From positions 5,041 through 69,040 of the forward strand of contig CBDVBK010000007.1 of assembly GCA_965372215.1 (NCBI GenBank): a DNA stretch of 64,000 nt. Direction: 5' to 3'. The stretch's first letter is position 1. Every line of letters starts with the position of its first letter. The notes beneath the pieces were generated by a model. It was not told the origin of the DNA, searched no databases, and worked only from the letters and a program-made list of their open reading frames with translations. Below are positions 21,235 to 28,013 of the stretch, one piece after another. The translations under genes and the position numbers were made by a program. The DNA comes from an uncultured bacterium (GTDB lineage: Bacteria > Fermentibacterota > Fermentibacteria > Fermentibacterales > JCC-6).

Positions 21235-23328
21235 TTAAGTCTTCATTACCTCATGCAGGCTCTTGCATAGCTCTTTGATATTGAACGGTTTTGGAATAAT
21301 GCCCTTGAACCCGAAGTCTTCGTAGTTGGCCAATACCGGATCTTTTGCGTATCCGCTTGAAACGACAGCCTTAACATCCGGATCTATCTCCAGCAGTTTT
21401 TTGACTGTCTCCTGTCCGCCCATACCTCCAGGTACGGTCAAGTCCAGAATGACAACATCAAACGGTTTTTCTGAATTCCCGGCCGCGATATAAAGCTCAA
21501 TTGCTTCCTGTCCATCCTGAGCGCTGACCGCTTCAAAACCTGAACTCGTTAACATCCCGACAGCAACCATTCTGACAGTTCTATCATCATCCATAACCAG
21601 GATTCTTCCCTCACCGGCTTTCAGATCAGCCATACTTATTTTTACAGCTGAAGGTTTCTTATCTGAAGCAGGAATAGCGATGAAAAACGTCGTTCCTCTT
21701 CCAACCACAGATTCAACCCTTATCAGTCCTTCATGTTTCTTGATTATGGAATAGGCAGTCGCAAGCCCCAGTCCGTTCCCTTTGGCTTTCGTTGTGAAGT
21801 AAGGATCAAAGATCTTTTGAAGGTTCTTTTCAGGTATACCGACTCCACTGTCCTTAACTGTCAGCTTTACATAATTCCTGCTATTCAGGGATAAAGCCAG
21901 TTCTGTCTCTGTATCTGCATTCTCCGCTTTTATCGTGAAGAAACCGCCTTCCGGCATTGCCTGGTACGCATTGACAGTCAGATTTTCGATTACCTGTCTG
22001 AACTGAACTACATCTATTTCAACAGGCCAGAGATCATCAGATTGGAAATACTCATATTTGATACTGGAACCGCTGAGGATAAAATTGACAGAATCAGTGA
22101 TTATTTCACATAATGAAGTGGATTTCTTCACCGGTGATCCGCCCTTGGAGAAGGTAAGCAGCTTATAGGTCAGATCCTTTGCTCTTGTAGATGCATTCAA
22201 GGCATCCTGCAAAAACTCGTACGCTTCACTTTCTGGGTCGGAGTATGTCTTTGCCAGATCGATGTTCCCCAGAATACCGGTGAGAATATTGTTAAAATCA
22301 TGCGCAATTCCACCGGCAAGAATACCCAGGGACTCAATTTTCTGAATTTTGGCCTGTTCTTCTTCCATCCTTCTTCGCTCAGTGATATCGAGAGCAACTA
22401 TCTGAACTGCTGCCCTTTCCTGGAAAGCAAATGGAATTGCGACAATCTCTACTTCAACAATAGAGCCATCGATCTTTTTAAACCTTCTCTCTGTCAGGGG
22501 AGTCTCATGATTATTTTCCAGTATGTTCTTAATCATCTTCTTCATTATCCCGTGATCGTCCGGATGGATGAAATCCAGTAAAGGATGTCCGATAATATCC
22601 TCAGAGCTTTCCGCTCCAAGGAGTTTCAGACCGGCATCGTTAACAAAGGTCAGCATATCATCACAACAGACCAGAATGGTCTCTGGCGATGACTGAACAA
22701 GCCTGCGGTATTTTCCCTCTGATTTCAGCAATGCCATTTCGGCTTCTTTTCGCCTTACAATATCAATGAAAACATTCAGGGAACTTTCAACGATGTCCCT
22801 GTCTTTTTCCATGAAAGGAAGACGGAATTTTCTATCTTCCATGTCGTTACCGATCAGTAGAGCAACTCCCTCGTACCGGTTTAAATACCACAGGATATAT
22901 TTTGATTCGATTGAGCTGCAGAATGAATCCGTCACAGGGGTCGTTTCAGTGTTTGAGTTTACGAACAGGAACTCAGGCGTTGTTTCATTGTTCCCGGGCA
23001 GTGGTGAAGAACTATCCTGAAGACCAAGCGAACACTGTGAAATGAAAGCTCCAGCTTCTTTATCGTATCTGAGAATCATGGCTCTATCAGCCCACAGTGT
23101 GCTCAGAATTACCTGAAGAAATCGCTTTCCGATATCTTCAACTGATACATCATGATTAATCAGTTCGTATGTTTTAAGTATAAGGGAAGTAGTGGTGTGT
23201 GTACGCTTTGCGTCATTATGAACCTGAGTCAGTTCCTGCTGCAATCTCAGGATCTGCTGGCCCATATCGTCACATTGACGACGATAGAAATCCATTTCAG
23301 CCTGAATATGATCCTTGTTCTTATTCAT
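21235..23328 (-). CDS. Soluble hybrid sensor histidine kinase with a C-terminal receiver domain (coiled-coil, PAS, HisKA, HATPase, REC)
   Basis: H-box GGIAHDFNNILTGILG, N/G1/G2 ATPase motifs, and a C-terminal receiver domain (ILVMDDD...VVILDLTVPGGMGG...K). No TM segments. Confidence 0.85.
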   Translation of the reverse strand: MNKNKDHIQAEMDFYRRQCDDMGQQILRLQQELTQVHNDAKRTHTTTSLILKTYELINHDVSVEDIGKRFLQVILSTLWADRAMILRYDKEAGAFISQCSLGLQDSSSPLPGNNETTPEFLFVNSNTETTPVTDSFCSSIESKYILWYLNRYEGVALLIGNDMEDRKFRLPFMEKDRDIVESSLNVFIDIVRRKEAEMALLKSEGKYRRLVQSSPETILVCCDDMLTFVNDAGLKLLGAESSEDIIGHPLLDFIHPDDHGIMKKMIKNILENNHETPLTERRFKKIDGSIVEVEIVAIPFAFQERAAVQIVALDITERRRMEEEQAKIQKIESLGILAGGIAHDFNNILTGILGNIDLAKTYSDPESEAYEFLQDALNASTRAKDLTYKLLTFSKGGSPVKKSTSLCEIITDSVNFILSGSSIKYEYFQSDDLWPVEIDVVQFRQVIENLTVNAYQAMPEGGFFTIKAENADTETELALSLNSRNYVKLTVKDSGVGIPEKNLQKIFDPYFTTKAKGNGLGLATAYSIIKKHEGLIRVESVVGRGTTFFIAIPASDKKPSAVKISMADLKAGEGRILVMDDDRTVRMVAVGMLTSSGFEAVSAQDGQEAIELYIAAGNSEKPFDVVILDLTVPGGMGGQETVKKLLEIDPDVKAVVSSGYAKDPVLANYEDFGFKGIIPKPFNIKELCKSLHEVMKT

Positions 23329-24532
23329 TGGTAAATACTGTCAGCACCCCCGTCCAGTCCAGCGGACGGCTGCGCCCGAGAAGCGGGGCTATCTCCACGC
23401 CGGAATAAAAACCCAGTAACGGTATGCTGTCCCCGATTATCTTCCTGACAATGCCGGCCTCCTCGACTTCGGATCCGCTGAAGCTGGAAGCCCTCCCGGC
23501 ACAGTCGATATAAAGGGCAAATACCGATTTTTTTCTGTCGATGGTTTCAAGCAGATCAGAAGTTCCTTTCTGCACTGATTCCGCCATCATCCGATTATCC
23601 CGTGACATTATCTGAACCTTTGATCCCTGATGGAAATCCGCTTCGAAGAGCCTCACAGAACCATCTTCCTGATTTGAGCTGATAATAAGGCGGTTTACAT
23701 ACACATTTTCATTAAAAGGCGCATATATATCCCCATACTTTTCTCCAATAGTCAATATCAGTTGTTGGATGATCTCAGGCAAAGTTTTGTGATCTATAGC
23801 AAGTTTCTCACATATGACTTCTATTGCGGGCTGACCATCAAGTTCATAGAGAACAGGACCGTCTATCCTGGTAATCTCCAGAAAGGAGCTGACAGGAGAG
23901 CATCCATGCATCAGTGTTGTATGAGGCTGCAGTTTCTCTCCGGGAAAGACAATAGCAATTGCTGAATGCTTCATTGTTCTGCTGCCGCTGTAAATGAAAC
24001 TTGATGAGAAGGTGAATTCGCCGACCATACCGGCGCCTATAATATGCAGGTTTTTCCCGCCAAGCCCGGCATAAAGACCATCTGTTAACTGGCTTCCGGT
24101 ATAAAGCACAGGAGGCGGAGCTGACCGTGTATTATCGTAAAATACGAGTACTGTATCACCTTCTGCAGTTATTTTTTCGAGTCCATCGGCAAGATTCCTG
24201 CCTGCCTCAAACTCGCCTTCCTTCATGTTATCGATCATTACAACTTCCGGTACCGGAAAAGGAGCGGTAAATACTGCCAGACCGCATTCATAACCGGTGT
24301 ATCCAAGTGAATTGTTCGTGATTATTCCAACCGCTGACCCGCCATATATATCAACGTTGCCCAGCTCAGATCTTATTCCATTCAGGACTCTGTCCGGTTC
24401 ATGCCGGCCGCCGCAGAAAGCCAGAACCCAGGAAACTGAATCGTTACCGATGATCTGGTTCTTCGCCTCACCGGCAGCTTCCCGGCCGGCCTTTTCTGAT
24501 TCAGTATCCTGACTCATGCCTATGTATATCAT
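23321..24532 (-). CDS. FIST-domain sensor protein (FIST_N plus FIST_C). Overlaps the kinase start by 8 nt.
   Basis: Motifs VLAFCGGRHE, GGSAVGII and LLGFYSGVEIAP resemble FIST family signatures. About 400 aa, as is typical. Assigned from memory of the family, not from a search. Confidence 0.55.
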   Translation of the reverse strand: MIYIGMSQDTESEKAGREAAGEAKNQIIGNDSVSWVLAFCGGRHEPDRVLNGIRSELGNVDIYGGSAVGIITNNSLGYTGYECGLAVFTAPFPVPEVVMIDNMKEGEFEAGRNLADGLEKITAEGDTVLVFYDNTRSAPPPVLYTGSQLTDGLYAGLGGKNLHIIGAGMVGEFTFSSSFIYSGSRTMKHSAIAIVFPGEKLQPHTTLMHGCSPVSSFLEITRIDGPVLYELDGQPAIEVICEKLAIDHKTLPEIIQQLILTIGEKYGDIYAPFNENVYVNRLIISSNQEDGSVRLFEADFHQGSKVQIMSRDNRMMAESVQKGTSDLLETIDRKKSVFALYIDCAGRASSFSGSEVEEAGIVRKIIGDSIPLLGFYSGVEIAPLLGRSRPLDWTGVLTVFTNE

Positions 24533-26844: not shown

Positions 26845-28013
26845 TTAGACCTGTAATTTCTTTTTCTGGAAAGAAGTGTTTCTTCATCATTGGATATTCT
26901 GTCAGCTGGTGCTGAATATCGGTTCCGGATTGCAGCCAGCCTTTTGCGAAATCTCGCAATGCAGGAATATAGAACAGCTTCAGCGGATCCTTTGAGCCGC
27001 TCCGGTGACTGATTGCAGTCGGCACAAATCTGACCGGGCATATACTGTTCCTTGTACTGCATTAAGGTATCAATTGAATCATGAAGGATATTGCCCAGAG
27101 GGTTCCGCACAGACTGATCATTACAGCAGATCGAACTTCCATCCGCGGCGATGAAGAAATTCGCGTTCCAGAGGCAGGGAAATCTGAAACTCCGAATAAG
27201 GTCTGCTATCTCGCCTATGCCTGAGAAAAAGCGCTTCAGTACAAGTTTCATCCGGATGTTTACTCCATTAACAGAACGCCCGTTGTACCTCCTGAACAGG
27301 TCTTTGTACATGTCGACTCTGACAACAGTGCTCCGGATCAAGCCTGACCGGTTACTGGTCGCGGGAAACATCACCAGTTCAATCTCGCCAAGTCCTTTCC
27401 CGCGGGCAAGCCTCGTAAGATAGTCAACTGTATCAGCGAAATCATGTCTTATGATCTCAATCTCAGGCGGAGAGATATGAAACATCAGTTTTGAGAACCG
27501 GCCCTTTGCTCTGAACTCCATTGCCTTCTCAACACCGGGCAGTACTTCGGACAGAAGTGCTTCTCCCCTGTTGCTGTCACCCATCATAATCAAACCGTAT
27601 GATTCAGGTTTTACTGTAGGCAGTGAAATAATCAGTGAGATATCATTGCAGAGAAATGGATCCATTATCCCCGGCGCATTCAGTCTTAAACCGTTTGTTA
27701 CAACGGAAACTTCAGGAGGTGGAACTGCGGAAATATTCCAGCCCCTGAGCATATCACCGAACATCTCCATTCTATGATTGAACAAAGGGTGAAGTGTTGC
27801 CTCACCATCGCCTGAATTGGCTATGTAACGCACATAAGTTCCTGATTCAGCTGCTTTCAATACCCGTTGAATAAGGGTTTTCGTAACGATATATGGCTGA
27901 AACTCTCTCGGACCGCTGTATCCGGTTTCATTTATACCGCACAGTCTGCAGGAGTAGTTGCATATACCATGCACAAGGCTGTTGTTAATTGATATGGGAC
28001 GGCGTGTTTTCAT
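26841..28013 (-). CDS. Radical SAM enzyme with a C-terminal SPASM domain
   Basis: CNYSCRLC (CxxxCxxC) near the N-terminus. The C-terminal Cys-rich region CCNDQ...CADCN is typical of SPASM auxiliary clusters. Confidence 0.8.
   Translation of the reverse strand: MKTRRPISINNSLVHGICNYSCRLCGINETGYSGPREFQPYIVTKTLIQRVLKAAESGTYVRYIANSGDGEATLHPLFNHRMEMFGDMLRGWNISAVPPPEVSVVTNGLRLNAPGIMDPFLCNDISLIISLPTVKPESYGLIMMGDSNRGEALLSEVLPGVEKAMEFRAKGRFSKLMFHISPPEIEIIRHDFADTVDYLTRLARGKGLGEIELVMFPATSNRSGLIRSTVVRVDMYKDLFRRYNGRSVNGVNIRMKLVLKRFFSGIGEIADLIRSFRFPCLWNANFFIAADGSSICCNDQSVRNPLGNILHDSIDTLMQYKEQYMPGQICADCNQSPERLKGSAEAVLYSCIARFRKRLAAIRNRYSAPADRISNDEETLLSRKRNYRSK

Follow-up and report, generated by a model that had tools for sequence, protein, structure and literature searches.

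Within a 64,000-nucleotide (nt) stretch of DNA from an uncultured bacterium (assembly GCA_965372215.1, contig CBDVBK010000007.1, forward-strand positions 5,041 to 69,040; hereafter the window, in which all positions are counted from its first letter), five genes on the minus strand form a cassette that is a credible candidate for a new small-molecule synthesis-and-signalling system, because the same linkage recurs in a second phylum. The genes encode a radical S-adenosylmethionine (SAM) enzyme, rSAM1, a FeeM-type acyltransferase of the GNAT superfamily, a class-B cobalamin (B12)-binding radical-SAM enzyme, a stand-alone FIST protein and a cytoplasmic hybrid histidine kinase. Re-reading the coordinates placed all five open reading frames (ORFs) where an earlier, sequence-only reading had put them (Table 1). 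What that reading had missed is that rSAM1 and the FeeM-type protein constitute, on comparative evidence, one functional unit, the core of the cassette, to which the B12 enzyme is accessory. We tentatively favour the view, only just short of even confidence, that a synthase of a small molecule is linked in the cassette to its own cytoplasmic signalling pair, with a sensor tuned to the pathway.

The rSAM-FeeM unit

The FeeM-type protein matches the FeeM family profile PF21926 over its whole length (positions 1-158 of 158), at 125.5 bits where the cut-off is 27, and its sole sequence relative in the PDB is FeeM itself (2G0B). E113, within the motif CELSGLAV, aligns with the Glu of AEVVQFAMD in 2G0B; this residue, which we take to be catalytic from structure work on FeeM, is invariant in all 15 of the rSAM-partnered GNATs aligned. 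The protein had been described as a LuxI/FeeM-like synthase. The FeeM half of that description holds, and the possibility that this gene belongs to an unrelated GNAT family is dismissed by the same match. Unlike LuxI, however, the protein has no match to PF00765, nor to TIGR03694 (Pfam and NCBIfam, E ≤ 0.01), and membership of either family was therefore ruled out; its only NCBIfam match, PRK14852 at 64.6 bits, falls far under the cut-off. Close relatives are rare, at 20 clusters among 5.8 billion proteins.

SPASM domains are recognised by a seven-cysteine motif that serves two auxiliary clusters. No match to the SPASM profile PF13186 was found for rSAM1 in Pfam, and an alignment of 21 homologues revealed only four invariant C-terminal cysteines, spaced as C-x15-C-x33-C-x2-C, in place of seven. 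A full SPASM assignment was therefore ruled out, and of the earlier label, a radical-SAM enzyme of the SPASM type, only the radical-SAM part survives. A distant relative (P0271) scores 20.9 bits with PF13186, against a cut-off of 21.5. With a radical-SAM core and a truncated SPASM region that holds the ligands of one auxiliary cluster, rSAM1 is a Twitch-like member of the SPASM/Twitch structural group. Fold comparison places it closest to anSME and the Twitch/SPASM enzymes, and maturases of peptides that are made ribosomally and modified post-translationally (RiPPs), namely ChlB, SuiB, CteB and SkfB, are among its closest folds. The fold and the C-terminal auxiliary-cluster region are thus common to rSAM1 and enzymes such as anSME, BtrN, MoaA and SkfB. 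Unlike these, the rSAM1 family is isolated by sequence, lacks a SPASM match in Pfam and is unique in having a GNAT acyltransferase as its partner or fusion. An exhaustive HMMER (phmmer) search returned only 37 matches among 1.84 billion cluster representatives, so the family is small and sharply isolated; a search with the rSAM1 protein gathered 115 homologue clusters.

The maturases among these folds would suit a RiPP lipopeptide cluster, in which the Twitch enzyme would cross-link a ribosomal peptide, the B12 enzyme would C-methylate it and the GNAT would N-acylate it, and both B12 radical-SAM methylases and GNAT acyltransferases are known in RiPP pathways. However, no ORF within the cassette or next to it is a plausible precursor, rSAM1 has its cluster motif as early as residue 18 and so no room for an N-terminal RiPP recognition element (RRE) domain, no protease or exporter gene is present, and the GNAT is of the type that acts on free amino acids. 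With neither a credible short ORF nor an RRE domain, membership of a RiPP cluster was rejected, and we find this explanation barely credible.

In every contig examined, the FeeM relative is directly adjoined by an rSAM1 homologue. About 29 of the 115 homologue clusters are single fused polypeptides of 610-680 amino acids (aa) that contain both domains, in the order rSAM-FeeM or, as in P0257, FeeM-rSAM; it is because fusions exist in both orders that we regard the two as one unit. The window pair, whose genes share an ATGA stop/start overlap (26841-26844), is the split form of a protein that is fused in many relatives. The radical-SAM domain is also found fused to a GT2/GT21 glycosyltransferase or a class-I methyltransferase, and FeeM to a UDPGT domain, partners that point to a small molecule that is amphiphilic and tailored. 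The rSAM gene has a FeeM or T_hemolysin-like GNAT as its neighbour in Fermentibacterota, Desulfobulbia, Planctomycetota, the Planctomycetes-Verrucomicrobia-Chlamydiae (PVC) group, Victivallaceae, Cytophagia and Eubacteriales. Even the most divergent rSAM1 members, from Cytophagia and Eubacteriales (45-48% identity), have a FeeM/T_hemolysin-like GNAT of about 225 aa as their neighbour.

Fusion of a radical-SAM domain to a GNAT is the defining architecture of Elp3, where the radical-SAM domain precedes a GNAT-fold acyl-binding domain just as in rSAM-FeeM. By an Elp3-like logic, the GNAT would hold acyl-CoA or an acyl group on acyl carrier protein (acyl-ACP), the radical-SAM enzyme would abstract a hydrogen from the acyl chain, and the resulting radical would alkylate tRNA, protein or another lipid, with no N-acylation of an amino acid. 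The frequency of rSAM-GNAT fusions in the rSAM1 family is in keeping with this, but the fold ranking rules out Elp3 homology of rSAM1, which falls outside the Elp3 family, and we judge such a mechanism very improbable.

The B12 enzyme matches both PF02310 (67 bits) and PF04055 (93 bits), which confirms it as a class-B B12/radical-SAM enzyme, as had been proposed for 24541-26022. In NCBIfam it comes closest to TIGR04072, 'lipid biosynthesis B12-binding/radical SAM protein', with 318.1 bits against a cut-off of 360; no family lies nearer, but on this score membership of that equivalog was ruled out. Among solved structures, TsrM (6WTE) is the nearest relative. Fermentibacterota cassettes carry the gene, one of them in shortened form, and the Desulfobulbia lack it. 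In the shortened case, an Aegiribacteria metagenome-assembled genome (MAG; L015, 4141-4703), only the C-terminal ~190 residues are left, while the fused rSAM-FeeM, FIST and kinase genes are all intact, which indicates that a cassette can do without the B12 enzyme. In Planctomycetota, a DUF4070-type B12 radical-SAM enzyme adjoins the pair at one locus (L019), and a 40%-identical one lies 4 kb off at another (L022).

The FIST-transducer module

The FIST protein matches PF08495 (FIST_N, 91.3 bits) and PF10442 (FIST_C, 71 bits). A search of PDB sequences with the FIST profile found nothing; the AlphaFold2 model (pLDDT 89) has human FBXO22 as its best PDB fold match (E 4e-11). Profiles and fold together bear out the FIST domains that had been called in 23321-24532. 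The call of a soluble PAS-containing hybrid kinase was likewise upheld, with matches to HisKA (34 bits), HATPase_c (76.5 bits) and REC (65.7 bits) as well as PAS, and no transmembrane segment. The first ~200 residues of the kinase have no match in Pfam.

Relatives of the FIST protein number about 2300 at E ≤ 1e-10, and many are 50-60% identical across phyla. We surveyed 80 FIST-centred metagenome loci, of which 61 had enough downstream sequence: in 59 of these, the next gene begins about 35 nt after the FIST gene, and its first ~200 aa are homologous to the N-terminal region of the window kinase. Past this shared domain the outputs vary, from HisKA-HATPase and hybrid kinases to PAS-HisKA_2 (HWE kinase) and PAS-GGDEF-EAL proteins. 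On this sequence evidence, the FIST and kinase genes belong to a widespread two-gene FIST-transducer module. The ~200-aa region is a candidate for a new domain family and probably serves in FIST docking or as the input domain.

Such pairings have precedents. In NosP/NosK, the FIST protein binds an adjacent soluble kinase without a recognised sensor domain and controls its autophosphorylation, and NosP-type FIST proteins bind haem and sense nitric oxide (NO) (PMC12570481); the same arrangement, VpsV/VpsS, has been proposed in a Vibrio quorum-sensing relay (PMC4398556). The window resembles NosP/NosK (NahK) and VpsV/VpsS in having a stand-alone FIST gene directly upstream of a soluble, sensor-less kinase, and here too the outputs near FIST vary between kinases and cyclic di-GMP enzymes. 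It differs in that the FIST-kinase pair shares an operon with a cassette for biosynthesis, an arrangement not described for NosP systems. With 22.9 bits against the cut-off of 450 of the NosP model NF041558, the window FIST is not a NosP equivalog.

Conservation of the cassette and regulators in other lineages

By scanning one genome per species, we identified 19 true orthologous loci; the gene orders that follow come from tblastn with the five window proteins. Relatives with 83-85% identity bear the name Candidatus Aegiribacteria, so that the host belongs near Aegiribacteria/Fermentibacterota and not, as had been suggested, in Cloacimonadota. The five-gene order recurs in four more species-level Fermentibacterota genomes, one of them the genome with the shortened B12 gene, and in one metagenome contig, with 39-71% protein identity to the window and different flanks. 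The full order is kept in Candidatus Sabulitectum (L016), two Fermentibacteraceae (L017 and L031) and the metagenome contig (L100); across these loci identities go down to 64/39/67/59/56% for rSAM, FeeM, B12 enzyme, FIST and kinase. Outside the phylum, the rSAM and FeeM genes of one Desulfobulbia MAG (L030, to which L105 is identical) are fused and followed by those for FIST and the hybrid kinase (58/47/55/46% identity), with no B12 gene. Co-localisation beyond the window, which the sequence-only reading had made a test of its proposal, was therefore found in both lineages.

In simple distance trees built by neighbour joining, the synthase-linked FISTs form one clade. The rSAM and FIST trees are congruent, and the Fermentibacterota and Desulfobulbia versions are sisters in both, which indicates that synthase and sensor pair travelled together over a deep divergence.

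Other lineages place other regulators beside the synthase. In cultured Desulfomarina profundi (L093, 5278-12369; AP024086), a dCache kinase and a sigma-54 response regulator lie three genes upstream of the synthase, in the order dCache kinase, sigma-54 response regulator, NMT1_3 binding protein, rubredoxin, rSAM, FeeM and HU; the 59-aa rubredoxin, encoded directly upstream of rSAM, may be the electron donor for the radical-SAM enzyme. An IclR regulator is found at the Desulfopila locus, a sigma-54 response regulator and an extracytoplasmic-function (ECF)-sigma-like protein at a planctomycetotal one (L022), an ECF-sigma-like protein at a PVC one (L020) and a PAS kinase directly downstream in Victivallaceae (L024). 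Divergent sigma-54 activators of about 770 aa accompany three further loci (L018, L176 and L178). Two of these, L176 (5529-13433) and L178 (128-11542), hold two cassettes each, composed of a sigma-54 activator, an X-rSAM fusion and FeeM, where X is a methyltransferase or GT2/GT21. Their activators are homologous end to end, including an N-terminal sensory region of about 430 aa, and the loci also contain extra SPASM radical-SAM genes and a fusion of UDPGT to FeeM. They have the look of arrays of several synthase/regulator paralogues, from an uncultured PVC-like bacterium, and one regulator paralogue for each synthase paralogue is what cognate pairs of synthase and receptor would be expected to show.

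Proposed pathway and alternative explanations

Following the chemistry of its family, the FeeM domain would use acyl-ACP or acyl-CoA to attach a fatty acyl group to an amino acid or amine, and the Twitch-type rSAM1 would perform an oxygen-independent radical step on the FeeM substrate or product. Oxidation or dehydrogenation is the simplest guess for this step from the likeness to anSME and BtrN, and C-C bond formation would also be possible. The B12 enzyme would add a lineage-specific modification, most likely C-methylation of an unactivated carbon, and the pathway would yield a tailored lipid metabolite of the N-acyl amino-acid type. Analogy with NosP/NosK and VpsV/VpsS suggests that the FIST protein binds a ligand and modulates autophosphorylation of the kinase; were it tuned to the product or an intermediate, an autoinducer-like or feedback loop would result. 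These are the likeliest ligands, because the FIST clade is co-inherited with the synthase and cassettes of other lineages have regulators of their own. That the FIST-kinase clade does respond to the product or an intermediate we consider possible, at somewhat less than an even prospect.

Several observations weigh against joining the synthase to a dedicated sensor. All of the chemical steps are ones that we infer. The whole 64-kb window holds no other REC domain or kinase, and no Hpt or response-regulator partner. FIST-transducers greatly outnumber the synthase, with 2300 FIST proteins to 115 rSAM1 clusters, and a synthase is present in only 3 of the 34 FIST loci that had 3 kb or more of sequence upstream, which implies that the module is autonomous and works without a synthase product. 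Even within the synthase-linked FIST clade there is one exception to the linkage (L097, 1649-2881), a FIST gene with neither a kinase downstream nor a synthase upstream. Conversely, Desulfopila and Desulfomarina profundi carry rSAM-FeeM without FIST-kinase. In the cultured Paenibacillus macerans (L094/L095, 9303-12998), a 41%-identical rSAM gene lies between those for an APH-like kinase and a PK/HpcH-like protein, with an O-methyltransferase gene next and FeeM absent, so the rSAM family is not strictly tied to acyl-amino-acid chemistry. Finally, the five-gene loci come mostly from a single phylum, and their synteny is therefore perhaps partly inherited rather than selected.

These last points lead to the simpler proposal of two unrelated modules that lie side by side in a compact genome and are conserved through shared ancestry. 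Synthase without FIST-kinase and FIST-kinase without synthase both exist, and a distribution of five-gene loci mostly within one phylum is what shared ancestry would leave. Yet the gene order is kept while the flanks change, and this recurrence means that the packing exceeds chance; the 8-nt spacer and 8-nt overlap on either side of the FIST gene imply translational coupling; and the linkage is retained in Desulfobulbia at 46-58% identity, with congruent trees. Mere juxtaposition is, in our judgement, improbable.

The main competitor to a sensor tuned to the pathway is regulated lipid remodelling, in which the enzymes make a modified membrane aminolipid or acyl lipid, the FIST-kinase pair senses a general cue (haem, NO, redox state or a common metabolite), and the shared operon serves to co-express lipid modification and signalling. 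A universal ligand is suggested by how widely the FIST module occurs, and how highly it is conserved, where the synthase is missing, and the haem binding and NO sensing of NosP-type FIST proteins (PMC12570481) offer examples. Lipid chemistry is also suggested by the 'lipid biosynthesis' family that best matches the B12 enzyme, a CDP-alcohol phosphatidyltransferase-like gene beside the pair in Desulfopila, a ketoacyl synthase near the planctomycetotal L022 pair, and the GT21-type lipid glycosyltransferase domain among the fusion partners. However, the synthase-linked FISTs stand apart as a clade that was inherited together with the synthase across phyla, each cassette in other lineages has its own regulator paralogue, which would be unexpected for a general cue, and the window FIST lies far below the NosP cut-off. 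We regard lipid remodelling as unlikely, though deserving of real weight.

The boldest form of the synthase-sensor reading is that rSAM-FeeM represents a new, oxygen-independent class of autoinducer synthase in anaerobes, whose radical-modified acyl-amino-acid product is sensed intracellularly by a FIST protein gating a soluble hybrid kinase, or in other phyla by a dedicated sigma-54 activator. We consider this quite unlikely as a whole; if true, Fermentibacterota would gain their first quorum-type circuit, and bacterial FIST domains their first non-haem ligand.

Comparison with known systems

N-acyl amino acids and acyl-homoserine lactones (AHLs) are major bacterial signals and bioactive lipids. 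To our knowledge, the tailoring of both has been described as aerobic chemistry, with next to nothing reported from strict anaerobes or candidate phyla. A signal-synthase-superfamily enzyme beside a hybrid kinase, as in the window, is an arrangement shared with the LuxM/LuxN, CqsA/CqsS and LqsA/LqsS systems, and the single regulator for each synthase paralogue in other lineages is a further likeness to autoinducer systems, among which LuxI/LuxR pairs also count. Receptors of the LuxN, CqsS and LqsS type are membrane proteins that bind the signal directly; in contrast, the window kinase is soluble and would act via its FIST partner.

The closest biosynthetic parallels are clusters of the FeeM/NasY type (fee, stieleriacine, thalassotalic acid, kyonggic acid and tyrazolone), which combine a FeeM-family hallmark enzyme with oxidising and methylating tailoring enzymes, like the window with its putative oxidising and methylating partners. 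In aerobes, the N-acyl dehydrotyrosine clusters consist of an N-acyl amino acid synthase (NAS), an oxidoreductase (nitroreductase/ThiF) and a methyltransferase (PMC12479983). The window differs in that its tailoring enzymes are radical-SAM proteins, suited to oxygen-independent chemistry in strict-anaerobe lineages, and in that the putative oxidising partner is fused to the synthase in many relatives. Although a NAS is present, Pfam detects neither the ThiF-like adenylyltransferase nor the nitroreductase that accompany it in NasY/Tyz clusters in any of the five cassette proteins (0/5), which places the cassette outside the NasY/Tyz group. Its product pathway would be an anaerobic counterpart of the NasY-type N-acyl(dehydro)tyrosine pathways.

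No description of an rSAM-FeeM cassette system was found in the searchable literature, in agreement with the earlier impression that the system is undescribed. What appears to be undescribed is the fused rSAM-FeeM synthase family, its systematic pairing with regulators and its coupling to a FIST module. The cassette is not categorically new, since all of its parts belong to known superfamilies and both the synthase/kinase and the FIST/kinase arrangements have precedents. It nevertheless defines a unit of two enzymes, in which FeeM is coupled or fused to a Twitch radical-SAM partner; this unit is rare, sharply delimited and repeatedly found beside regulators. Its link to a FIST-kinase pair offers a route to the question of which ligands besides haem and NO FIST domains bind, and the unannotated ~200-aa N-terminal domain marks the transducers partnered with this FIST family. 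The rSAM-FeeM system is testable, as the pair is carried by the cultured Desulfomarina profundi and the small size of the genes would allow their expression in an anaerobic heterologous host.

Cassette layout and neighbouring genes

Read directly from the sequence, the junctions in gene order are -4, +9, +8 and -8 nt. From this geometry we infer that the five genes are co-transcribed. The minus-strand orientation, the ATGA overlap, the 8-nt spacer between the B12 enzyme and FIST genes and the 8-nt overlap of FIST and kinase (ATGAATAA) are as the sequence-only reading had given them; the spacer between the FeeM and B12 enzyme genes is 9 nt (GCAGTACCC), not 10 nt. None of the five proteins (0/5) has a hydrophobic segment compatible with a membrane helix.

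Table 1 Features of the five-gene cassette in the window.
Feature	Position	Strand	Details
rSAM1, radical-SAM enzyme of a small isolated family; functional partner of the FeeM gene	26841-28013	minus	390 aa; CxxxCxxC C18/C22/C25
Twitch-like auxiliary Fe-S region of rSAM1, residues 280-333	27015-27176	minus	invariant C280, C296, C330, C333
FeeM-type N-acyl amino acid synthase-like GNAT	26032-26844	minus	270 aa; Glu113 in CELSGLAV
Class-B cobalamin-binding radical-SAM enzyme; putative accessory tailoring enzyme	24541-26022	minus	493 aa, GTG start; CxxxCxxC C203/C207/C210
Stand-alone FIST_N+FIST_C protein; putative accessory sensor of the downstream kinase (NosP/VpsV-like role)	23321-24532	minus	403 aa; PF08495, PF10442
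Cytoplasmic hybrid histidine kinase: N-terminal domain, PAS, HisKA, HATPase_c, REC	21235-23328	minus	697 aa
Kinase N-terminal domain, ~205 aa (residues 1-205); likely FIST-docking/input domain	22714-23328	minus	without Pfam match
Sigma-70-like promoter match, TTGAAA-18-AATAAT	28089-28118	minus	10/12 consensus positions; weak; consensus may not be that of the host

The cassette is set apart by gaps of 120 nt upstream (28014-28133) and 365 nt downstream (20870-21234), the former containing the sigma-70-like match. No convincing minus-strand terminator was seen after the kinase gene. An Rfam scan of 20500-28500 (E ≤ 0.1) gave no match to an RNA element in or around the cassette, and control by a riboswitch or other RNA was ruled out on this basis.

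Downstream, on the minus strand at 10357-20869, lies a group-4 [NiFe]-hydrogenase/complex-I-like operon, with NuoH-like, 30-kDa, 49-kDa/NiFeSe, antiporter-like, Fer4 and FAD/NAD-binding subunits; its earlier label as a hydrogenase operon is correct. The accompanying suggestion that the cassette might regulate this operon was abandoned: the adjacency is absent in every relative that extends past the kinase gene, with no hydrogenase homologue after it in L015-L017, L030 or L031. Upstream, also on the minus strand (28134-34912), are genes for a TPR-SLT lytic transglycosylase (756 aa), a TPR protein (306 aa) and a TPR-like protein (1223 aa). These SLT/TPR genes are syntenic in the closest Aegiribacteria only and are unrelated to the cassette.

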